From Xylanibacter ruminicola 23 (lineage in GTDB: Bacteria; Bacteroidota; Bacteroidia; Bacteroidales; Bacteroidaceae), in contig NC_014033.1 in NCBI RefSeq assembly GCF_000025925.1, positions 1,890,001-1,922,000 on the forward strand: a stretch of 32,000 nucleotides of DNA. The letters run 5' to 3'. This document shows positions 446 to 10,096 of this stretch, piece after piece. Position numbers and translations under genes: made by a program. The notes under the pieces are model-generated. The model was given only the letters and a program-made list of their open reading frames with translations, was not told the origin of the DNA and ran no database searches. Each line of letters starts with the position of its first letter. Position 1 is the first letter of the stretch.

Positions 446-1687
446 CTACTTCTCGAATAATATCTCCAATTCCACTTCCAGGCGCGCCAGCTGTCGCATC
501 TTCTCACGATACACTCGGCGCACACACACCTTGTATCTCTTACGGTTCATGCTCACATACATCACCTGATACCACTCAGGACTGATCCTGTCGAGCAGTT
601 TCCTAACCTGGTTGTAAGCAGCAAAGTGGCGCATCATGCCAAGATAGGAGTTCATCGTAGAAGCAAACTCGTTCACATGCTCGCGTGCATAGTGCTCATC
701 CGACTGAGCCAGACGATTGTAGCGCTCAATCTTGTCGATACAGGTGGCTATCGTGCGCCGGCTGATATAGGTGCGCCCTGGCATCACCATACCGCCAGTG
801 AACAGTACGCCCTTGGAGTAGTGCTGCAGATACATCTTCTTGGGATGACGCCGCACACCGTTCCGGGCTGCCCATTTGTCGACAATCTCATCACGCATCC
901 ATAGTAGCAGTTCCTTGTCGCGACTCACGAATATCATGTCGTCCATATAGTGGCCATAGCTCACCGACATACTCCAGAGACTGTCGGTTATCTCGTGGTC
1001 GAGATCGTCCATGAATACCAAGGCTGTCATCTGACTGATTACCTTGCCTATCGGCATACCATGCAGGCCGTCGCTGTGAAACAAACTCTTGTTGGGCGGC
1101 AAACCGTTCCAAGCTTTCAGCGGACTGTTACGCACACAATTCAGCTCAGGCCGGTCCATAATCACCACGCGCAGCAGCCATATCATCCACTCCAGGTCGG
1201 GACCACGGTATATCTGCCGTAGCAGACTGGCGAACTTGCGCCATGCAAGCTCCTTGGGCAGCGACATGAAGTACGACTGCATATCGAGCTTCATCACCCA
1301 GCAGTCGACCGTATAATTAGCTGACTGCTCTCTCACCATCTGCTCTACGCGCTGTATGCCATAGAGCGTGCCCTTGCCCACTCGGGTTGAGTAGTTGTCG
1401 TCGATGAACCGCTGCTCAAGAAAGGGCGTTACCCTCTGGGCGAAAACCGTGTCGACCACGCGGTCGCGAAAAGCTGCGCCGAAGATTTCCCGTTTCACGG
1501 GCTTATCGCTGACAAACACGATAGAGCGCGAAGGCTTGTAGGTACAGTTTTGCAACTCTTGCCACAGCTTCAGGCACTCCTCTTCGGCATTAATCTCAAA
1601 ACGAATAGCGTCTATCGTATTACCCTTGTGCCGCAAGCACAGCCAATAGGCTTCGTAGACCTCTTCGTAACTGACACCACATTTCAT
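446..1687 (-). CDS. DGR-type reverse transcriptase
   Basis: 413-aa ORF. The catalytic YxDD box reads SYGHYMDDMIFVS. The DGR-clade signature (I/L)GxxxSQ is present as PIGKVISQ, where retron and group II intron RTs carry QGxxxSP. The start codon lies 23 nt downstream of the TR. Confidence 0.92.
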   Translation of the reverse strand: MKCGVSYEEVYEAYWLCLRHKGNTIDAIRFEINAEEECLKLWQELQNCTYKPSRSIVFVSDKPVKREIFGAAFRDRVVDTVFAQRVTPFLEQRFIDDNYSTRVGKGTLYGIQRVEQMVREQSANYTVDCWVMKLDMQSYFMSLPKELAWRKFASLLRQIYRGPDLEWMIWLLRVVIMDRPELNCVRNSPLKAWNGLPPNKSLFHSDGLHGMPIGKVISQMTALVFMDDLDHEITDSLWSMSVSYGHYMDDMIFVSRDKELLLWMRDEIVDKWAARNGVRRHPKKMYLQHYSKGVLFTGGMVMPGRTYISRRTIATCIDKIERYNRLAQSDEHYAREHVNEFASTMNSYLGMMRHFAAYNQVRKLLDRISPEWYQVMYVSMNRKRYKVCVRRVYREKMRQLARLEVELEILFEK

Positions 1688-1710
1688 TTACAAATAGTCA
1701 ATATTCCATA

Positions 1711-1822
1711 GGCGAGGACGGGGCGAACGCGTCGGTCCGTATTGGACTTAGTGTTGTTGCCGTTCAGATAGAGTTTACCATCGGTGTTGAAGTTCAGATT
1801 GAACGCATAGCCAGCACCCTTT
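1711..1822 (-). repeat. DGR template repeat (TR), non-coding
   Basis: 112 nt, 100/112 identical to 2563-2674. In gene sense it is rich in AAC/AAT/AAA/AAG triplets in the frame of the VR codons. It lies in the avd-RT intergenic region. Confidence 0.9.
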
Positions 1823-1991: not shown

Positions 1992-2444
1992 TCACTTATC
2001 TTTCTGCTCTTTTTCTGTGACACGTATCCACCCCGACAGCATACGCCCGATGGTGTCGTAACGTGGCGCTATCTGCGCATAATGCTTCTTGCTCATCACG
2101 CGCTGATGCACACAGATGCGGCACAGCATACGCTGGTAGGTTAGCACCTCGAGGGCCTGGCGCATCTGAGCCACACTCTCGCGACGCTGGTGGTTGGCCA
2201 CGTAGATGAGCGACATGAGCTTAAGCCCCAGACTGCGCAACTCTTCAGAGAACAGGCGGTCGGTCTTGTTAAACTGGCTCGTCAGCGTGCATATATCGCT
2301 GAGCAGCATGGCCGACTCCTTATACACCTTGAGCTTCTCGGCTGGATCGAGCCATTCGCCCTCAACCACCGCAAGGGTCAGCAGTTCGGCACTCAGGCCG
2401 AGCTCAAAGCCCCTTCTGGCATCGGTATCAACAGGATTCTCCAT
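1992..2444 (-). CDS. avd: Accessory variability determinant (Avd)-like four-helix-bundle protein
   Basis: 150-aa ORF that looks predominantly helical, with a basic C-terminus (KKHYAQIAPRYDTIGRMLSGWIRVTEKEQKDK). It occupies the canonical avd slot between the target gene and TR. The IGRMLxGW-type C-terminal motif recalls the four-helix-bundle / 23S rRNA IVS protein family, from memory. Confidence 0.65.
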   Translation of the reverse strand: MENPVDTDARRGFELGLSAELLTLAVVEGEWLDPAEKLKVYKESAMLLSDICTLTSQFNKTDRLFSEELRSLGLKLMSLIYVANHQRRESVAQMRQALEVLTYQRMLCRICVHQRVMSKKHYAQIAPRYDTIGRMLSGWIRVTEKEQKDK

Positions 2445-2556: not shown

Positions 2557-4632
2557 TTAAAAGGCGAGGACGGGGCGAACGCGTAGGTCCGTACCGGACC
2601 TAGTGCCGTTGCCGGCCAGATAGAGGCTACCATCGGTGTCGAAGTTCAGACTGAACGCATAGCCAGCACCCTTTGCGGATTCTGTACTTGCCCAATAGTA
2701 TCCACCCGATCCTGCAATATCCGTCCACATATTCGACTTATCCACTGTTGCGCCTGTATTCTTCAGGCAGTTCTTTGCAGCAGTATTGAAAGCAGAGGCA
2801 GTTGAAGACGCTGCTCCACTCCAATAGCAATAGTTATCAGCATGGAACGTTCCCGGATTGGTACTAATACCACCAAAGAACTTAATCCACTCGTACTGCT
2901 GACCGATGCTGGGCAGATACCAGCCGCTGGTACCGGCAGGATGAGCCACCTCGCTCTCGTAAGTGGTCACAGCTGCATAGGCTGCAGGATATACCGCCTG
3001 ACTGTAATTAGCCGTGCTTGTAATCAGATTTGTTTCGCTGCGACCGTCCATATAGCCAGCACTGGCCACATAGTCATCCAGCTTGGTCTGATTAGTGATA
3101 TCAACAGGAGTGCCCAGTTGGATGCTCTCGGTTGACCATGCCATGGTGGCACTGCTGCTTACATCCTTCAGAGCGATGGCATAGCCACGCTGGAAGCCTG
3201 CTGCATAGTCGACAGCGCTCACGTTGGTACTGAATACGATAGCCACTGGAGTCTTGTCGGGGAACATATCGAGTGTACCCCAGGTACCATCGGCAAACAA
3301 CAGATCACCAGGAACAGGATCGGGCAATCCCTGATAAGAGATGATACCACTATTGGTAAAGGTAGCGGTAACGCTCTCATCGTCGAAATCGGTCACTGTC
3401 ACCTGCACATCCAGGTCCTGAATGGTAGATGGCACAGCATTCGACAGGGTGGCTGTGGTAACACTTGCCAGATCGGCAATACTGCTGGCACCATCGCCCT
3501 TGATAGTAGCATTTACGACATAGTGCGCATTAGGCTGAACCACATTAGTGGTTTTAGCACCGATAAACACGGGGTAGTAAACCGTCTTGCTATTCCATGC
3601 CTGACCATCGCTACTGTAGGTACCCTTGATAACCAGGAAGGTAAGATTACCCGCGTCGTTATTGTTGGGCAGGGTATAAAGGGTGTAGGCAGTGCCATAG
3701 CTGGTATGACTGGCATTCATGGTGACATCGGCAATACCGGTACCTGTACCAAGATAATCCTTCTGGTTGGTGGCATTGGTACTTTCGCCCTGATAGTAGC
3801 CGGCATAGGCACCCTGACTGAAGGCATAAGTGCCATCATTCATATCCAGATTAATCTTATCGGGCACACCCACGAGGAAGATCTCGGTCGGGGTGAAGCT
3901 GGCAGCGGTATGCTTGGTGGTCGAGAAATCAACCGACAGAGAAGCTAATGTCACCTTCGACACCAGGTGGTGGACCGTGACGGTCGACTCCCATTTATCA
4001 GCTATGCTGTTGAAAGCAATCGTGCTGTTGCCCACCATAGGCAACTCTGCTGGATTCACATCACCATCATTATCCATATCAAGTGCCTGATCGATAGTAA
4101 GTGCTGTAGCCTTGAAGTTGGTAGCGCTAGCCACATTCCACACTTCTTCTGCTTTTCCTTTGATAGTAGCAACCTTCGAGGGTGGCAGATTGATGGCCAC
4201 ACGCACCAGGTCGCCATTGGCGGGCTTCTGAGCATCAGGCAGGCCCGAAGAATAGGTAGAAGAAATCGTCTTCTGCGAGCTGATCTCCTCGCCAGTGCCC
4301 TCTATATCAACCTCCTTGATATCAAGCGTACTTCCTGTAGATTTGAAAAGACCTACAGTCAGATTAGTCATCATCATCTCGGCTGAGGTAACCGAAGTCT
4401 TATTGTTTGAGTCGTAACCGTTGGAAATAACGGTTGCGCTACGTGTCTGATTACTCACACTGGTAGTGCGGATGTTCAACACGATATCACTTCCCTGCTG
4501 CTTACCGGTAACAGCCTCTTCGGTACTGTCGAGCGTACACGAGCTAACACCCACAGCAGCAACGGCCATGAACACCACACTTAGTATTTTTATATATTTT
4601 GTATTCATATCTTCTATTTTTTTATTGTTCAT
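2557..4632 (-). CDS. DGR target: surface lipoprotein with an N-terminal fimbrillin (Mfa/FimA type V pilus)-like region fused to a C-terminal DUF1566 / C-type-lectin-fold variable domain
   Basis: 691-aa ORF. The likely true start is MNTKYIKILSVVFMAVAAVGVSSC at 4608, giving a lipobox Cys. The N-terminal two thirds are paralogous to the upstream fimbrillin (TLTIDQALDMDNDG.. vs PLTISQALDSDGNG..; SKVTLASLSVDF vs TKVTLESLSVND; FTPTEIFLVGVPDK vs FKPTQVFLYKVADK). The C-terminus has DUF1566-like motifs (GWYLPSIGQ, YYWASTE, ...VRPV) and ends in the VR. Confidence 0.88.
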   Translation of the reverse strand: MNNKKIEDMNTKYIKILSVVFMAVAAVGVSSCTLDSTEEAVTGKQQGSDIVLNIRTTSVSNQTRSATVISNGYDSNNKTSVTSAEMMMTNLTVGLFKSTGSTLDIKEVDIEGTGEEISSQKTISSTYSSGLPDAQKPANGDLVRVAINLPPSKVATIKGKAEEVWNVASATNFKATALTIDQALDMDNDGDVNPAELPMVGNSTIAFNSIADKWESTVTVHHLVSKVTLASLSVDFSTTKHTAASFTPTEIFLVGVPDKINLDMNDGTYAFSQGAYAGYYQGESTNATNQKDYLGTGTGIADVTMNASHTSYGTAYTLYTLPNNNDAGNLTFLVIKGTYSSDGQAWNSKTVYYPVFIGAKTTNVVQPNAHYVVNATIKGDGASSIADLASVTTATLSNAVPSTIQDLDVQVTVTDFDDESVTATFTNSGIISYQGLPDPVPGDLLFADGTWGTLDMFPDKTPVAIVFSTNVSAVDYAAGFQRGYAIALKDVSSSATMAWSTESIQLGTPVDITNQTKLDDYVASAGYMDGRSETNLITSTANYSQAVYPAAYAAVTTYESEVAHPAGTSGWYLPSIGQQYEWIKFFGGISTNPGTFHADNYCYWSGAASSTASAFNTAAKNCLKNTGATVDKSNMWTDIAGSGGYYWASTESAKGAGYAFSLNFDTDGSLYLAGNGTRSGTDLRVRPVLAF
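2563..2674 (-). repeat. DGR variable repeat (VR), encoding the last ~37 codons of the target protein
   Basis: Homologous to TR at an offset of 852 nt. It encodes KGAGYAFSLNFDTDGSLYLAGNGTRSGTDLRVRPVLA, and only two codons (F, stop) follow the repeat. Confidence 0.9.
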
Positions 4633-4666
4633 ATTATGATACTCTCACTATAAGCATGCCAACCTA

Positions 4667-5944
4667 TCAGTTAGTCGTAGTCGTCGAGCCACCTTCGCCA
4701 CCAAAGGTTGTGTTCTGTTCACCATCACCCCATTCAGACACCGAATTGAAAGCCACGGCTGTGTTAGCCTGCACATCAACACCGGCATCGATACTGGCAG
4801 CACCCTTACGCTTAAGCACTACCTTGATGCGATAGTTGCGGTTAGGATAGAATTTGCGATACTGCAACTCATCCATGGCCACACCGCTCACCACATTGAG
4901 CAAACGGAAGTTATAATAGCAGGTGCTCTCAGAAGAGCCATCGTTCCAAAGGCCCTTCACAACCAAGCGGGTGTCGTTACCCTCTGTGGGCGAGGCAAAC
5001 ACATTAGGCATGGCATAGAGCACGCACACCTTGTCAACCGAACTACCATCTACCCAGGTGGGATTGGTAGCATTAAGCGTAGCCAGGTCGCCATCACCAT
5101 CCGAGTAAACCTTTGTTCCCAGATACGCAGCAAAGTGAGCTGGAGCGGGATCGGTCACCTCACCGGTATAGTCGCACACGGTACCTGCAGGCGAGAGGTA
5201 ATTAGAGAAGCTATAGGTGCTTGAGAAATCGAAACCGAAATCCATCTTGTCAGCCACCTTGTACAGGAACACCTGTGTGGGCTTGAACGAATTGCCGGCT
5301 GGGATATCGTTAACACTCAGCGACTCGAGCGTCACCTTCGTAATCATGTGACCCATGGTGACATCGGCTACCAGATGACCGCTGGCAGGCTGGGTAATAT
5401 CCACCTCGCCATACATTGGCAGACTGTTGGATTCGGTCGCACCATTGCCGTCGGAATCCAACGCCTGAGAGATAGTGAGAGGAGTAGCCTTGAATGTGGC
5501 GAGCGGTGTACCAAGCGCCTTTACCCCAGTGAATACTTCCTCGGGCACATTGGCAATGATCACTGCACGGTCGCCAGCAGCAAACTGCGTAGCGGGACTC
5601 ACGTTATCAACTGTCGTAGAGAATCCTGATGCTGCCGACTGCCCATTCACGTTGAGATAGTTATAATAAATCAACTTGGGAGTATTATTGTCGCCGGCAT
5701 CTTCCTTGAACACAGCCACCAGCATCGTCTGGATCATCTTCTCAGAAGTCTTGGCTGCCAATGCATCATGGATATTAGTAGCACGGGTAGCACCTACCGA
5801 ACCACTGTTAATCTTAATCGTCAGAGTACTACCTCCGGTAGATGGGCTTACGTCCTCGTCGGTCTCGCTGACGCAGCCTGTCATCACAACTGCCGTGAAC
5901 AGCACTACTGCCCAGGCACTCATTCCTAAAAGTTTCTTTTTCAT
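4667..5944 (-). CDS. Fimbrillin-family (Mfa/FimA-like) pilus lipoprotein
   Basis: The track ORF is 4667..6037. The preferred start is MKKKLLGMSAWAVVLFTAVVMTGC at 5944 (cat at 5942-5944), which gives a lipoprotein signal. It is a paralog of the N-terminal part of the DGR target. Confidence 0.8.
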   Translation of the reverse strand: MKKKLLGMSAWAVVLFTAVVMTGCVSETDEDVSPSTGGSTLTIKINSGSVGATRATNIHDALAAKTSEKMIQTMLVAVFKEDAGDNNTPKLIYYNYLNVNGQSAASGFSTTVDNVSPATQFAAGDRAVIIANVPEEVFTGVKALGTPLATFKATPLTISQALDSDGNGATESNSLPMYGEVDITQPASGHLVADVTMGHMITKVTLESLSVNDIPAGNSFKPTQVFLYKVADKMDFGFDFSSTYSFSNYLSPAGTVCDYTGEVTDPAPAHFAAYLGTKVYSDGDGDLATLNATNPTWVDGSSVDKVCVLYAMPNVFASPTEGNDTRLVVKGLWNDGSSESTCYYNFRLLNVVSGVAMDELQYRKFYPNRNYRIKVVLKRKGAASIDAGVDVQANTAVAFNSVSEWGDGEQNTTFGGEGGSTTTTN

Positions 5945-6089
5945 AAGCTTTTCCTTTCTTTTAAAGGGTGAATAAACTAGATTGTTAATACTTATTTTCG
6001 AGTTATTAATTCGACTCTCCCTAGGAATAAAGCTCATGGAATGACGTTCAGTAATATTAAGTAATCAGTTCCTTATCCCATGCCTGCAG

Positions 6090-7583
6090 CTATTTCCACT
6101 GCAGGCTCTTCAACGCATCACGCGCCGGTATCACCCCATCGGCCTCGGCCATACGCAGATAAACCTCGGCTTTGTCACGGTTGCCCTCGAGCAGATGCAG
6201 CAATCCCAGGTTGCACCAGGCACGCGGGTCGGTCTCCCAGGCCAACAGGTACTTGCGGGCGCGCTGGGCATCGCCACGCAACAGGGCCACACCAGCGGCA
6301 TCGATAGCTGCCTCGGCACAGTTGGGGAACAGGCGCGCAGCCAGGTCGATGATGTCGCAGAACTCCTGTGAGCCTATCTCGAAGGCGGTGGCTGCCTGAT
6401 AGAAATTGTCGGGACTGATCGAGGCAGGAATACTGCCATTGCGATAGCTGGTAAGCTGGATGGGCACAGGGCGCGGACCAAACGTGAGCTGATAGTTCAA
6501 GCGGCACACGCGGGGGAACAGCTCGTGACGCATCACATCGTAGGTGCTACCAGAGCCTAAGGTGCGCAGAGCCTGCTCACGCCCCTGATCCACAGGGATA
6601 TTGGCGATGATATCAGCAGCAGCGGCCTGCAAAGGCAACTTGCTGACCGACACCAGCTGACGGATGCTGTCCCAGTCCTCGGATATCCACTGCACGCGCA
6701 ATTCGTTCTCGCCTGCCACCTGACGCTCCGACAGCATGCGGCGCAATTTCAGCACCTGCTCGGCAGCACGCTCCTCGTTCTTCGGACGGTTGCCTATGGG
6801 CGCACCATAGCCGGTAAGCTCTATACCCAGCAGACGACTGCCATAACTGGTGGTCTCGCGACTGATGGCCTGCTGTAACGAGTCAACCAGTCGGCGGTAG
6901 TCGGTACTGGTAAGACGGCAGTTATAGGGCACACGCAGCGCTCCTCTGACAGTGATGCCACCCGTACTAGCAGGCTCGGGCGAGAGGAACTGCACCCAAT
7001 GCTTGGCAATACGAACACCAGTAACATTACTGGCAACTGGGGCAGCGGCAACAGCCGACTCACCAAACAGCGGCTGGGTATTAACGGGCTGCCCTAACGG
7101 GATACGCTGCAGCAGCAGGTCTTCGTAAGTATGAGGACTACGGCCCTGCCAGGTGCTCTCCTCGCACTCGGCATACATGGCGGCACTGGCCATCCACTGC
7201 TGGTAGGGCACGGTGGTGTCGTAGATAAAGAAACGAGTGCGACGCTGGTTGTCACGGGTAACCAAGGGCACATTGATACGGCGGCGCTTCTTCAGCTTGT
7301 CGACGCGACGCTCGTAGCGGTCGCGAGAATCACCGTTGATAGCCACCGACGACAGACGGACAAACTGATGACCAGTCTTCAGCACGGGCGTGAACGTGAG
7401 CGTCTCGCCGGTGTTGAGAACCTTGTCGTCGTAACTGACCTTCATGTGCACGCGCAACAGATCGCCCTGAAGCGAGAACTGCTCGTCGCTAATGTGTAGC
7501 TGACCTTTATAGGCCCCCTGAGCCGATGCCATCAATGGCAGTGTCAGCAGCAGAAACAGAGTTTTAATTCTGGACATTCTCAT
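6090..7583 (-). CDS. DUF3868-like pilus-operon protein with a TPR-like C-terminus
   Basis: 497 aa with signal peptide MRMSRIKTLFLLLTLPLMASAQG. It follows the DUF3575-type gene, the conserved arrangement of Bacteroidales type V pilus loci (recollection). The C-terminal AEAAIDAAGVALLRGDAQRARKYL...NLGLLHLLEGNRDKAEVYLRMA looks TPR-like. Confidence 0.7.
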   Translation of the reverse strand: MRMSRIKTLFLLLTLPLMASAQGAYKGQLHISDEQFSLQGDLLRVHMKVSYDDKVLNTGETLTFTPVLKTGHQFVRLSSVAINGDSRDRYERRVDKLKKRRRINVPLVTRDNQRRTRFFIYDTTVPYQQWMASAAMYAECEESTWQGRSPHTYEDLLLQRIPLGQPVNTQPLFGESAVAAAPVASNVTGVRIAKHWVQFLSPEPASTGGITVRGALRVPYNCRLTSTDYRRLVDSLQQAISRETTSYGSRLLGIELTGYGAPIGNRPKNEERAAEQVLKLRRMLSERQVAGENELRVQWISEDWDSIRQLVSVSKLPLQAAAADIIANIPVDQGREQALRTLGSGSTYDVMRHELFPRVCRLNYQLTFGPRPVPIQLTSYRNGSIPASISPDNFYQAATAFEIGSQEFCDIIDLAARLFPNCAEAAIDAAGVALLRGDAQRARKYLLAWETDPRAWCNLGLLHLLEGNRDKAEVYLRMAEADGVIPARDALKSLQWK

Positions 7584-7619
7584 TTCTATATATACATTTT
7601 TTTGTGATTCAGCTTGTCA

Positions 7620-8192
7620 TTATCGCAGCATGTACACCAGCTGCAGACTGGCCGCTGTAGGCCCTAAGTAGTGCATATAGCACCTGCGGCTTACGACCCG
7701 CGTACGGGGCTCGGCGTAACGGCGGTAGTCGTTATAGGCATAGCCAAGGGTGAGCGAGGACTCGAGCCCCCAACGGCTACTCAGTGTAAAATGCCAGCCA
7801 GCGGTAACGCCCACCGAGTAGAAGTTGCCCTGTATGCGCTCGTCCTTGAGCTTGAACACGGGCAGGCCAGCCATATTGTAAACGCGCCAGTGAGCCGACG
7901 GACCAATGAACGGCCCCGTAAACGGCGCACGGAACCAGAAGCGGGCTTCGGGCTGCACCTTCAGGGTGCGCAGGTAGTGGTTTGTGCTCTGATAAGCGGG
8001 CATCCACTCTACATCCGCGTTCAGTGTCCAACGGTGACCGATAGTGAACTCCGCGCCCAGCGACGGTACCGTCAGGGCATCACTCAGCAGATTGGTTTTC
8101 ACAGCCAGCTCCTGAGCAGAGCCTGTAATGGATGCCAGCATCACCGCCGAGACCATCGCTGCGCGAACTTTATGATATATCTTCATACACAT
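7620..8192 (-). CDS. DUF3575-like small outer-membrane beta-barrel protein; first gene of the pilus operon
   Basis: 190 aa. Signal peptide followed by the KTNLLSDAL motif typical of DUF3575, with alternating beta-strand-like segments ending in an aromatic-rich C-terminus. An alternative start is MKIYHK at 8186. Confidence 0.75.
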   Translation of the reverse strand: MCMKIYHKVRAAMVSAVMLASITGSAQELAVKTNLLSDALTVPSLGAEFTIGHRWTLNADVEWMPAYQSTNHYLRTLKVQPEARFWFRAPFTGPFIGPSAHWRVYNMAGLPVFKLKDERIQGNFYSVGVTAGWHFTLSSRWGLESSLTLGYAYNDYRRYAEPRTRVVSRRCYMHYLGPTAASLQLVYMLR

Positions 8193-8217
8193 TCCATTTT
8201 TCCTTCTCCCCGTACAT

Positions 8218-8236
8218 TCCTATTATCAATAGGAGT
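8218..8236. repeat. Left arm of a 19-bp perfect inverted repeat (IR-L), 26 nt upstream of the DUF3575 start codon
   Basis: tcctattatcaataggagt at 8218-8236 equals the reverse complement of 9411-9429 (actcctattgataatagga). The match extends to 22 bp with one mismatch (8215-8236 vs 9411-9432). Each arm is also an internal 7-3-7 palindrome. Confidence 0.85.
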
Positions 8237-8263
8237 ATATCATTCTATTAAAAATATTATGCG

Positions 8264-8271
8264 TACCTTTG
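8264..8271 (+). promoter_or_regulatory. Bacteroidetes -7 promoter box (TAnnTTTG) for the integrase gene
   Basis: TACCTTTG followed by cagc, 28 nt upstream of the ATG at 8299. Confidence 0.5.
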
Positions 8272-8298
8272 CAGCCTAAATTAAATGATTAATGGATT

Positions 8299-9276
8299 AT
8301 GAACATACTATCAACTATCAGGATTAACAAATTGGCATCACACTGCTTGAGAGCCATCATCAACAAGAAAGGCAAATCAGAAACGGTTTCTGTCATCAGT
8401 CTGCTGCGCCAGACAATCAACGAAACCAAATCGCAACACAAAACCAGTACCCATAAGAATCAGGTGACAGCCGTCAATGCCTTCCAACGGTTCTTGCACG
8501 AAACCATGCAAACGTTAGAAACCGTCACGATTGATGAGCTGACACCCGAGACCATCAAGTCCTTCGAGAACTGGGCCATCGGCGAAGGGTTCAAACCTAA
8601 CTACGTAGCGCTACATATGCGCTGCCTGCGCACTCTGATCAACAAAATCAATGGCCGAGGCTCCGAACTGTTCAAACATGTGTGTACGACCAACCGTCAG
8701 ACAGAGAAACGTGCCGTAGGCAAGGAAACCATCAAACAGATCCGTGAACTGCATCTGCCATCAGATTCCAACATGGCCCTAGCACGCGACATCTTCTTGT
8801 TTTGTTTCTACGGCATGGGCATTCCCCTTATTGATGCCGTGATGCTTAAGAAGTCGCAACTGCGCGATGGGTACATCATATATAACAGGCACAAAACCAA
8901 CCGCATGGTGAAGGTGCCAGTATGCCAAGAGTTACAACTGTTGCTGGAACGCTTGCCCTCTAACGATTCGCCATACCTGCTACCGGTCATTACCAATGAT
9001 AAGACAGATAAGATGAAACAATACAGGAGTTTTTACCAGCGCTATATGCGTAGTCTAAAGAAATTAACCCTGCTCTCAGGTATCGAGTGTCGCCTCACGT
9101 CCTACACCCCACGTCACACATGGGCAAGCATTGCCTACAGGAACGGAGTCAACATCAACAACATTGCACAAGCCCTTGGACATGCCAATACCAATATTAC
9201 CTATTTATATATAAAAGAACTGAGTTGCTGGCATCTGGAGACCGCCAACAAAATTGTAATGCAGGCCGTTCAGTAA
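8299..9276 (+). CDS. Tyrosine-type site-specific recombinase/integrase, divergent from the pilus operon
   Basis: 325 aa with an N-terminal SAM-like DNA-binding region. The C-terminal catalytic motifs are YTPRHTWAS (H-x-x-R box) and LGHANTNITYLY (His...Tyr nucleophile). The box I arginine is not at its usual position: GMGIPLID appears where TGxRxxD is expected. Confidence 0.85.
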   Translation: MNILSTIRINKLASHCLRAIINKKGKSETVSVISLLRQTINETKSQHKTSTHKNQVTAVNAFQRFLHETMQTLETVTIDELTPETIKSFENWAIGEGFKPNYVALHMRCLRTLINKINGRGSELFKHVCTTNRQTEKRAVGKETIKQIRELHLPSDSNMALARDIFLFCFYGMGIPLIDAVMLKKSQLRDGYIIYNRHKTNRMVKVPVCQELQLLLERLPSNDSPYLLPVITNDKTDKMKQYRSFYQRYMRSLKKLTLLSGIECRLTSYTPRHTWASIAYRNGVNINNIAQALGHANTNITYLYIKELSCWHLETANKIVMQAVQ

Positions 9277-9388
9277 ATAAATGCCTATTTTTTATCTATA
9301 AAAGTGGTTTAACCACCCTGATTAGTTAATTAAGCTTAAAATTTGGTTGTTTTTAATTATAAAATAGTATTACAATAATTTAAAAGCT

Positions 9389-9396
9389 TATATTTG
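9389..9396 (+). promoter_or_regulatory. TAnnTTTG -7 box pointing outward across IR-R
   Basis: TATATTTG followed by caccc, the same 12-mer TATATTTGCACC as the SusC promoter box at 23041. It lies 15 nt before IR-R and is immediately followed by the long hairpin at 9404-9438. Confidence 0.45.
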
Positions 9397-9403
9397 CACC
9401 CAG

Positions 9404-9445
9404 AAACCGCACTCCTATTGATAATAGGATTGCGGTTTTATAATG
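9404..9445 (+). terminator. Strong hairpin plus U-run, an intrinsic-terminator-like element that embeds IR-R
   Basis: aaaccgcaCtcctatt-gat-aataggaTtgcggttt forms 15 bp with one C/T mismatch and a 3-nt loop. The GC-clamped base ccgc/gcgg is followed by ttttataa. It could terminate the integrase transcript and/or transcripts from the 9389 box. Confidence 0.5.
9411..9429. repeat. Right arm of the 19-bp perfect inverted repeat (IR-R)
   Basis: actcctattgataatagga is the exact reverse complement of 8218-8236. Confidence 0.85.
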
Positions 9446-9494
9446 CCCACAACAAAAAAACGACCAAAAGTTTGGAAGTTTCGGATAATCATCG

Positions 9495-9502
9495 TATCTT
9501 TG
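9495..9502 (+). promoter_or_regulatory. TAnnTTTG -7 box upstream of the small ORF/vapD pair
   Basis: TATCTTTG followed by cagc, 23 nt upstream of the ATG at 9525. Confidence 0.45.
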
Positions 9503-9524
9503 CAGCGGATAATGAATATAGAAT

Positions 9525-9704
9525 ATGGAACCAAAGATTGGAGACAAGATGAAAGTTAGTCCACAGTTGACTGCACAGTCAGACTGGATTGATGGTGAAG
9601 TGATTGATGTTGAACACAATCCGTATATGGGGCTCATCATTTCAATTAAGGATAAGCTCGGAAGAATATTCTTCGGACAGAGTCGTTTCTTTATAGCCTT
9701 GTAA
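9525..9704 (+). CDS. Small hypothetical protein (59 aa) immediately upstream of vapD; candidate partner/antitoxin
   Basis: Translated by hand because it falls below the ORF-track length cutoff: [59 protein letters not shown]. The TAA stop at 9702-9704 lies 7 nt before the vapD ATG, and a promoter box sits just upstream. No family was recognised. Confidence 0.45.
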
Positions 9705-9711
9705 TAGCAGA

Positions 9712-9996
9712 ATGTTTGCAATCGCTTTTGATATGGACATAAAGGAACTCCGTAGTACTTACGGAGAGCCTTATAATAATGCATACTACGAAATAAAGAT
9801 TTTACTTCGTAATTATAACTTTTATAATACTCAAGGTAGCGTTTATCTAACAGATAAAGACGATATGGCAAATCTTTTTGCTGCAATCTATGCCTTGAAG
9901 AAGATTAAATGGTTTAAATCTTCAGTTCGAGACATTCGAGCATTTAAGGTTGAGAACTGGTCTGATTTCACTGATATAGTTAAAGCAGAAGATTAG
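9712..9996 (+). CDS. vapD: VapD (virulence-associated protein D) family, a Cas2-like endoribonuclease
   Basis: 94 aa. It is collinear with my recollection of Haemophilus VapD: M(F/Y)AIAFD..., TQGSVY/LY, DMANLF, and SVRDIRAF(K/R)(V/I)E(N/Q)WSDFTD near the C-terminus. Confidence 0.85.
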
Positions 9997-10053
9997 GATG
10001 TTTCGAAGAACCGGTGCATCTTAACAGCCAAATATAACTTTTCATAAAATAAG

Positions 10054-10096
10054 AAACCGCCCTGACGAGTCGCTACTCATGGGGCGGTTTTCAAAA
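10054..10096. terminator. Bidirectional intrinsic terminator between vapD (+) and susD-like (-)
   Basis: aaaccgccc (10054-10062) pairs with gggcggttt (10082-10090), and the loop has an inner gagt/actc pairing. T-runs follow on both strands: tttc aaaaaa on plus, tttcttatttt on minus. Confidence 0.6.

Follow-up and report, generated by a model that had tools for sequence, protein, structure and literature searches.

The window analyzed here is a stretch of 32,000 nucleotides (nt) of Xylanibacter ruminicola 23 (contig NC_014033.1, positions 1,890,001 to 1,922,000). It contains a tyrosine recombinase gene bracketed by a pair of inverted repeats (IR-L on the left and IR-R on the right), next to a divergent DUF3575 gene that heads a pilus-like operon whose last component is a diversity-generating retroelement (DGR). 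The DNA between the repeats was found in both orientations in public DNA, and is considered as a promoter switch for that operon. The features of the switch are listed below in window coordinates; contigs and homologous loci are designated by L numbers.

8215..8236, no strand: IR-L, left recombination site, with arm CATTCCTATTATCAATAGGAGT and the 17-nt palindrome TCCTATT-ATC-AATAGGA at 8218-8234
8237..9410, no strand: invertible segment of 1174 bp, reversed between collinear flanks in L103, L108, L116 and six ENA contigs
8264..8271, plus strand: TACCTTTG, putative Bacteroidetes -7-type box for the recombinase gene, inside the segment (motif only)
8299..9276, plus strand: tyrosine recombinase gene, 325 amino acids (aa), ADE83399.1 / WP_013065382.1, Xylanibacter (Prevotella) ruminicola
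9389..9396, plus strand: TATATTTG(CA), putative outward promoter box (P_out), 14 nt inside IR-R (motif)
9403..9444, plus strand: split terminator-like hairpin and U-tract, with its 5' half (9403-9410) inside the segment, the IR-R palindrome at its tip, and its 3' half (9430-9439) and UUUUAUAAU outside
9411..9432, no strand: IR-R, right recombination site, with arm ACTCCTATTGATAATAGGATTG and the palindrome TCCTATT-GAT-AATAGGA at 9413-9429, its centre inverted relative to IR-L
7620..8192, minus strand: DUF3575 gene, first of the operon (Pfam DUF3575, 3.7e-58)

An earlier note on this DNA had described a perfect 19-bp inverted repeat, extending to 22 bp with one mismatch, as a non-chance match. 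Its coordinates were reproduced, and 0 of 100 dinucleotide-preserving shuffles of the sequence yielded a repeat match. The arms were 22 nt long and 95% complementary (one mismatch, 19 nt exact), with a spacer of 1174 nt between them. With up to three mismatches tolerated, the exact 19-mer TCCTATTATCAATAGGAGT occurred in the 32-kb window only at 8218-8236 (plus strand) and 9411-9429 (minus strand). The distances given for the left side were also correct, with IR-L starting 26 nt from ATG 8192 and an intergenic gap (8193-8298) of 106 nt. Each arm contained a 17-nt palindrome with 7-3-7 symmetry (TCCTATT-NNN-AATAGGA), and the two palindromes taken as direct repeats were still identical at 14 of 17 positions. 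Because each arm is palindromic, the polarity of the sites is carried only by the centre (ATC vs. GAT) plus 2-3 flanking bases.

Inversion of the segment at the repeats is real. Contigs encoding the recombinase and DUF3575 proteins in public assemblies were each mapped onto the window. The orientation of the window was shared by two NCBI genomes together with several contigs from Logan and ENA (L001, L002, L004, L006, L008, L011-L016, L115). The opposite orientation was also recovered: the check proposed in the earlier note, i.e., comparing the orientation of the segment and searching for the junctions 8217|rc(9410) and rc(8237)|9430 (rc, reverse complement), returned flipped junctions in L103, L108, L116 and ENA contigs. 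Searching the metagenome collection for the 19-mer gave 14 loci, consisting of 11 unrelated chance matches, L113, which resembled the window over just 23 nt at the repeat, and L103 and L108. L103 (JAEEGJ010044093.1) crossed both repeats, and its flanks (2.2 kb and 0.7 kb) were collinear with the window while the segment was reversed. Its identity was 1317 of 1494 aligned columns against the window flipped in silico and 670 of 1552 against the window as given, and identity climbed to nearly 100% right at the repeat. Both L103 and L108 belonged to a related strain, in which the recombinase segment was 95% identical to the window and the pilus genes approximately 75%. L108 contained the flipped left junction, and L116 (another ENA metagenome) the flipped right junction plus 1.9 kb of right flank. 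These three contigs came from ordinary shotgun metagenome assemblies with three different assembly accessions. The claim that the repeat brackets an invertible segment was thus upheld by L103 at both junctions, and by L108, L116 and the ENA contigs.

Restriction-fragment contigs from six ENA samples, 99.9-100% identical to the window, held both flipped junctions between them. Five contigs (L003, L005, L007, L009, L010) carried rc(9440..9430), the repeat and 8237 onward, which is one of the predicted junctions, and L017 carried 9360..9410, the repeat and rc(8217...), which is the other. The library (ERZ761544-560) consisted of genomic PsiI (TTA^TAA) fragments concatenated via a GAGTAGAATTCTACTC linker, with Nextera adapters; searching the literature for a linker-concatemer library by enzyme, organism and linker sequence gave no match. 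The PsiI sites at 9357 and 9438 accounted for the fragment ends, and the flipped junction was internal to single PsiI fragments, with no restriction site at the junction. The flipped fragment was joined to differing ligation partners across five ENA samples, and was therefore abundant before ligation. In flipped contigs the mismatched base (8217/9430) remained on the outside flank, placing the crossover within the exact 19 nt. The ENA library was not relied on alone, because L017 also held an unrelated microhomology chimera. In that contig (L017:700-900; window 5664-7579, in the DUF3868 gene) a 108-nt piece, 7221-7328, was inverted, and 7329-7578 and 6863-7220 were missing, with microhomologies of 3 nt (GTA) and 9 nt (GTCGCGAGA) at the joints; the inverted piece is probably an amplification chimera.

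Logan contigs from three different runs (L018-L020) had their ends at position 8236, precisely where IR-L meets the segment, which is the de Bruijn graph branch expected if one sample holds both orientations. The longest contigs of many homologues were short (approximately 1.1-1.3 kb), suggestive of assembly breaks at the repeats; since the collection consists mostly of short contigs, they were given no weight.

The recombinase matched Phage_integrase (5.2e-13) and Phage_int_SAM_5 (8.7e-11) in Pfam. Residues R197, K199, R272, H273, H295 and Y304 were unchanged in the 32 homologues of its profile, which aligned to the XerA-type structure 4a8e with K199, R272 (in YTPRH), H295 and Y304 on catalytic positions. 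None of the NCBIfam tyrosine invertase and Xer families matched at the curated cutoff, the best being XerA, XerC and XerD with 35-38 bits (cutoffs of 220-335). Domain searches of the enzyme gave tyrosine-recombinase domains only, and no serine recombinase domain. In class the enzyme falls with the recombinases of the Tsr switches of Bacteroidales and of FimB/E, and the term "Hin-like" used in the earlier note, which had itself named a tyrosine recombinase, holds for the layout and fails for the enzyme. The recombinase would be the invertase of the segment.

The profile of 32 homologues retrieved 80 loci from species-representative genomes, in which the species of the window was not returned. 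In L022-L025 (45-55% identity) and L036, inverted repeats bracketed the recombinase gene, each with the site (T)CCTAT-N5-ATAGG(A). The arms of the sites were conserved, and the 5-nt centres varied (TATCA, TGCGG, TACGG, CGCGG, CTGGA, TGAGG), being always asymmetric and inverted between partner sites. This is the pattern expected of core sites of a tyrosine recombinase, with conserved binding arms and a crossover region that is free to vary but matched between partners. L022-L026 and L036 shared the order IR-L, TAnnTTTG, recombinase gene, outward TAnnTTTG(CA) at 6-33 nt inside IR-R, and IR-R. Of these six loci, five had a divergent DUF3575 gene as left neighbour. In L022, L023, L025 and L036 it lay just outside IR-L, followed by DUF5119 or DUF3868 genes, and it was also the left neighbour of the switch in L103. 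Right-hand neighbours could be called in L022, L023 and L025 and were convergent. From the layout of the box, the DUF3575 gene and the neighbours, the assemblies of L022, L023, L025 and L036 likewise have the box facing away from the operon. The homologous layout recurred in other Prevotellaceae and Bacteroidaceae. The closest genome match, L021:2432-4565 (53% identity, an X. ruminicola metagenome-assembled genome), had TCCTAT-TCGAA-ATAGGA sites 2.1 kb apart that enclosed a PIN-domain gene and the recombinase gene.

Other arrangements of sites were also seen among the homologues. In the left arm of L023 (L023:3318-3357) the palindrome was present in two tandem copies, TCCTATTACGGATAGGAGT followed by TCCTATTACGGATAGGAC. 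More distant loci (L026, L027, L032, L033, L043, L044, L046, L047 and L094; 31-38% identity) were bracketed by a related pair, CCTCY-N5-RGAGG, which in L027, L032, L033, L044 and L046, where long repeats were detected, lay within inverted duplications of 32-107 nt. In L032 and L063 the duplications comprised the 5' ends of SusC-like genes (signal peptides MEKRL.../MKKRL...). These distant loci resemble the two-way toggles or shufflons known from B. fragilis (Tsr0667) and B. thetaiotaomicron (BT1041).

Motifs and geometry suggest the identity of the promoters and the assignment of ON and OFF orientations. As claimed previously, a TACCTTTG box that may serve as the recombinase's own promoter was found upstream of ATG 8299, and an equivalent box occurred just inside IR-L in L022, L023, L024, L025, L026 and L036. 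The outward TATATTTG box just inside IR-R was confirmed as well. In silico, inversion placed the end of this box 58 nt from ATG 8192, in agreement with the distance of approximately 60 nt proposed, and 64 nt from ATG 8186, which public gene callers take as the start of the DUF3575 gene (188 aa) and which is the likely start. No exact TAnnTTTG box toward the pilus operon was found in the 106-nt gap, as had been stated, and none on the minus strand between 446 and 8298. With 19 matches over 64,000 strand-positions, the background frequency of the motif was approximately 3e-4 per position and strand, so that an outward box in 7 of 7 loci, the window included, far exceeds what chance would give; this conservation supports the predicted promoter logic. 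Allowing one mismatch in TAnnTTTG was uninformative (264 hits vs. 295 expected), and a sigma-70 scan gave no enrichment, that model being irrelevant for Bacteroidota. In L103 the stretch from the repeat through P_out was near-identical to the window, with differences confined to a few bases adjacent to the repeat. Between the recombinase stop and P_out, 9303-9320 and 9343-9351 differed among the window, L103 and L115 in almost invariant surroundings, and no stable structure was predicted. Compensatory terminator changes between the window and L103 in this interval were considered and dropped, as the folds were only weak.

In the orientation of the window, the RNA downstream of P_out was predicted to fold into a hairpin (-22.4 kcal/mol, z = -6.8), after which comes UUUUAUAAU. 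In the flipped orientation only the 7-bp palindrome stem was left (-11.3 kcal/mol, z = -1.0), without a U-tract. Re-flipped L103 gave a hairpin of -16.2 kcal/mol followed by U7, L036 behaved in a like manner, and L025 had a conventional terminator just outside IR-R; L022 and L023 had no comparable hairpin. According to these folding predictions, the hairpin is plausible as an insulator of the OFF state, and is not a universal feature of the family.

The segment 8237-9410 is thus probably a self-contained inverton that acts as an on/off promoter switch for the pilus/DGR operon. The recombinase would be made from its own internal promoter whichever way the segment faces, and would bind the two 17-nt palindromic core sites (arms CCTAT/ATAGG, asymmetric centre). 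Strand exchange within the 19-bp identical region would then reversibly flip the 1.17-kb segment. The orientation of the window would be OFF, with P_out firing rightward into a strong hairpin and U-tract that is built only in this state, and with the pilus operon left without a canonical promoter. The flipped orientation would be ON: P_out would stand approximately 60 nt upstream of DUF3575 and the hairpin would be dismantled, with transcription proceeding through DUF3575, DUF3868, the fimbrillin-like gene and the gene for the DGR variable protein, and perhaps on through the DGR accessory gene, template repeat and reverse transcriptase gene.

Several observations weigh against this reading. 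The promoter call depends on an 8-nt motif that was not enriched window-wide (19 found vs. 15.4 expected), and a recognisable -33 TTTG element was present at neither box. No stable terminator was found between the recombinase stop and P_out, where there were weak folds of -6 to -7 kcal/mol only; in the ON state either promoter might therefore drive the operon, and recombinase transcripts may also read into it. L021 had no canonical outward box near its right site, and the split hairpin was clear in just 2-3 of 7 loci. The recombinase lacks the canonical box-I arginine, the position reading GIPLID; the invariant R197 is a candidate substitute. The box-I arginine is similarly displaced in IntDOT, an active Bacteroides integrase. 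The ENA library is unusual and, if it were the only source, its flipped junctions might have come from template switching at the palindromes, and contig coverage is unusable as an orientation ratio.

Some of these points would also fit an inversion that is real and yet is not a promoter switch for the operon. The inversion might modulate the recombinase or rightward transcription, or a domesticated recombinase might cause it as a neutral side effect, the operon having a non-canonical promoter outside the segment. The unenriched motif and L021 favor this explanation, as do one-mismatch minus-strand boxes at 8249-8256, at 8276-8283 and upstream of internal genes (e.g., 4659-4666). It is nevertheless unlikely: being within the segment, the boxes at 8249 and 8276 would be carried off by flipping, the outward box recurs at all seven loci, the neighbour on the side to be activated is consistently the divergent DUF3575 gene, and on the right-hand side the neighbouring genes are either convergent or shielded by a terminator. 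It is very unlikely that the locus has one orientation only, the flipped junctions being assembly errors or template switching at the palindromic 19-22-nt repeat. L103, L108 and L116 come from ordinary metagenomes under three accessions, L103 is coherent over both junctions, and the flipped PsiI fragment had differing partners in five ENA samples. Assembly k-mers are normally longer than such a repeat, which therefore should not by itself give misjoins or contig ends at 8236. What can be said for artifacts is that the ENA library consists of linker-ligated concatemers, that L017 has its separate inverted microhomology chimera, and that hairpin-forming repeats favor strand switching.

With its terminal inverted repeats around a single recombinase gene, the 1.2-kb unit resembles an insertion sequence, and could be a small mobile element inserted by chance beside the pilus operon. 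It was 95-98% identical between strains whose pilus genes were approximately 75% identical, and the recombinase gene appeared beside unrelated genes in some contigs. Mobility as an explanation of the latter was rejected, since those neighbours were PsiI fragments joined by the GAGTAGAATTCTACTC linker and Nextera adapters. The unit occupied the same place beside the DUF3575 gene in homologues of just 36-55% identity from different genera, and it was flipped in place with its flanks unchanged. The repeat pair occurred in one copy in 32 kb, and no target-site duplication was seen (flanks CGTACAT and TTGCGG), all of which makes a chance insertion highly improbable. Barely credible is the remaining explanation, that the palindromes are operator sites of a dimeric transcription factor in a segment that never inverts, in spite of the 7-3-7 dyad symmetry typical of operators and of one copy standing between the promoter-less operon and the divergent gene. 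Operators do not require centres that are inverted between partner sites, as found at every homologous locus, and this explanation was refuted by the flipped orientation in public assemblies, with breakpoints within the palindromes. A promoter inverton for the pilus/DGR operon hence remains the preferred reading.

The genes and elements downstream of the DUF3575 gene were as follows.

6090..7583, minus strand: DUF3868/TPR protein gene (domain search)
4667..6037, minus strand: gene for a fimbrial tip or FimA-like protein, 456 aa (NCBIfam FimD_tip_adhes, 6.3e-13, under the curated cutoff)
2557..4632, minus strand: gene for the DGR variable protein, 691 aa, with Mfa1-like N-terminal part (NCBIfam fim_Mfa1_fam, 4.9e-09, under the curated cutoff)
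2538-2674: variable repeat (VR), where the gene for the 691-aa protein has its 3' end (TR/VR repeat)
1992..2444, minus strand: bAvd, DGR accessory gene (Pfam bAvd, 9.4e-10)
1686..1822, minus strand: template repeat (TR) of the DGR (TR/VR repeat)
446..1687, minus strand: DGR reverse transcriptase (RT) gene (Pfam RVT_1, 4.5e-14)

The retroelement is a DGR: it has an RT and an Avd-type accessory gene, and the target gene carries at its 3' end a VR that differs from the TR specifically at adenines. TR and VR were 84% identical over 137 nt, and the first 11 mismatches were all at TR adenines. The assignment of the operon to type V pili is based on weak matches to fimbrillin families, FimD_tip_adhes and Mfa1 being below cutoffs, and DUF3575 and DUF3868 are families with no assigned function; the allele of the 456-aa protein from other strains gave a weak P_gingi_FimA match. 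No convincing intergenic terminator was found on the minus strand from DUF3575 to the RT gene, and a single long transcription unit including the DGR is possible, judged from the absence of boxes and terminators only. As a tentative extension, possible rather than probable, the inverton may be the sole promoter source for a 7.7-kb minus-strand unit including bAvd, TR and RT, so that mutagenic retrohoming would occur in the ON phase only, and cassettes with the recombinase inside and split terminators may be widespread in Prevotellaceae and Bacteroidaceae. The pilus genes (window 6022-8236 vs. L103:3682-5917) were approximately 75% identical, compared with 95% for the inverton and approximately 94-96% for the right flank; the pilus operon is either evolving much faster than its surroundings or has been replaced between the strains of the window and L103.

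To the right of the switch there was a small cassette (9493-10050) with its own TATCTTTG box at 9495, followed by a terminator and susD/susC.

9525-9704: open reading frame of 59 aa, in this cassette
9712-9996: VapD/Cas2-like gene, 94 aa, in the same cassette

The two genes look like a toxin-antitoxin pair. Other strains had an NYN-domain gene (L012, L013) or a PIN-domain gene (L116) at this position, and the slot beside the switch is therefore variable. Between the VapD-like gene and susD there was a bidirectional terminator-like hairpin at 10052-10096 (AAACCGCCC...GGGCGGTTTT). The motif (AGAAACCGCCC...) was examined as kin of the switch hairpin and rejected as an ordinary bidirectional terminator; its start resembles the 5' portion of that hairpin (AGAAACCGC), probably by coincidence.

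Phase-variable pili under the control of tyrosine recombinases are well established in gut Bacteroidales, and the principle is not new. Promoter inversion by tyrosine recombinases has been described for the Mfa1 type V pili of P. vulgatus (BVU2677/BVU2684; PMC12940148), and for outer-surface operons of B. fragilis (BF2766/Tsr19 with IVp-I/IVp-II; PMC4747536). The present locus shares with the Bacteroidales Tsr systems a local tyrosine recombinase, short inverted repeats, and a putative promoter of the same type that would be flipped to or from a fimbrial or outer-membrane operon, in the same phylum. It differs in that the recombinase gene inverts together with the putative promoter, whereas Tsr systems invert a small promoter-only segment with the tsr gene fixed alongside. 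The repeat motif also differs, being TACTTNNNANGTAANNGAA in the Tsr systems and (T)CCTAT-N5-ATAGG(A) here, as does the cargo, an operon with DUF3575 first and the DGR last. The tandem palindromes of L023 recall the variable number of repeats at IVp-I of B. fragilis, which is reported to tune expression (PMC4747536).

The S-layer/OmpA-like loci of the BT1927 type in B. thetaiotaomicron have a promoter segment of 301 bp flanked by paired, imperfect palindromic repeats of 17 nt (bioRxiv 10.1101/521070). They resemble the present locus in having a tyrosine recombinase beside the locus, sites that match the 7-3-7 palindrome in length and type, and a reference genome with the promoter in the OFF state (as predicted for the window), and differ in that the inverton lies downstream of the recombinase gene and the cargo is a lipoprotein plus an OmpA-like protein. 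Like the H segment of Salmonella, the unit described here is an invertible segment of approximately 1 kb with its own recombinase and a putative promoter at one end that in one orientation would read into a surface-structure operon. Hin, however, is a serine recombinase acting at hix sites with the help of an enhancer bound by Fis, unlike the tyrosine recombinase and palindromic core-type sites found here, and the 26-bp hix/gix-type sites of Hin, Gin, Cin and Pin contrast with 17-nt palindromes of different sequence. The likeness to the H segment is one of layout, and neither of descent nor of chemistry. The element would operate as a Bacteroidales Tsr switch does, in the arrangement of the H segment, and does not belong to the serine invertases.

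In the fimS switch of E. coli, the tyrosine recombinases FimB and FimE likewise invert a promoter controlling fimbriae, but fimS is 314 bp long with 9-bp repeats, has the recombinase genes outside, and requires IHF and Lrp. The orientation of fimS also alters the fate of the transcript crossing the switch (fimE mRNA). The hairpin of the present locus is intrinsic-terminator-like and split over the recombination site, unlike fimS.

The type V pilus tip adhesins diversified by DGRs in Bacteroides (bioRxiv 10.1101/2024.11.15.621889) have the same gene order, with a variable protein having an Mfa1/fimbrillin-like N-terminal part at the end of a pilus-type operon, followed by avd, TR and RT. That work makes no mention of inversion, recombinases or invertible promoters, and takes flanking integrases as signs of mobility. 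It describes the pilus-targeting DGRs, located on integrative and conjugative elements, as "tightly regulated", with low avd/TR/rt transcripts whose cause is unexplained (bioRxiv 10.1101/2024.11.15.621889). Unlike in those DGRs, an inverton heads the DGR-pilus operon here. If the switch does gate avd-TR-RT, it would provide a concrete explanation for that tight regulation, and two diversification systems would be stacked on one adhesin, with on/off bet-hedging coupled to hypermutation of the same pilus tip protein.

In surveys of invertons, nearby invertases are generally outside the inverton, Hin being an occasional internal case (PMC11892184, PMC5903667), and one inverton predictor was trained solely on invertons of <300 bases (PMC11602134). 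If the cassette family is widespread, surveys focused on segments of <300 bp would have missed it, and some of the "integrases" flanking type V pili would be re-explained. The present locus argues for larger size limits in inverton finders, and for reading "integrases" beside DUF3575/fimbrillin clusters as invertases and not as signs of mobility. Compared with the known systems, what is new is the layout, with the recombinase inside its own 1.2-kb inverton, a putative outward promoter, and a terminator-like hairpin present in the predicted OFF state only; the organism, a rumen species of the Prevotella group; and the cargo, an operon ending in a DGR-diversified pilus-type protein.

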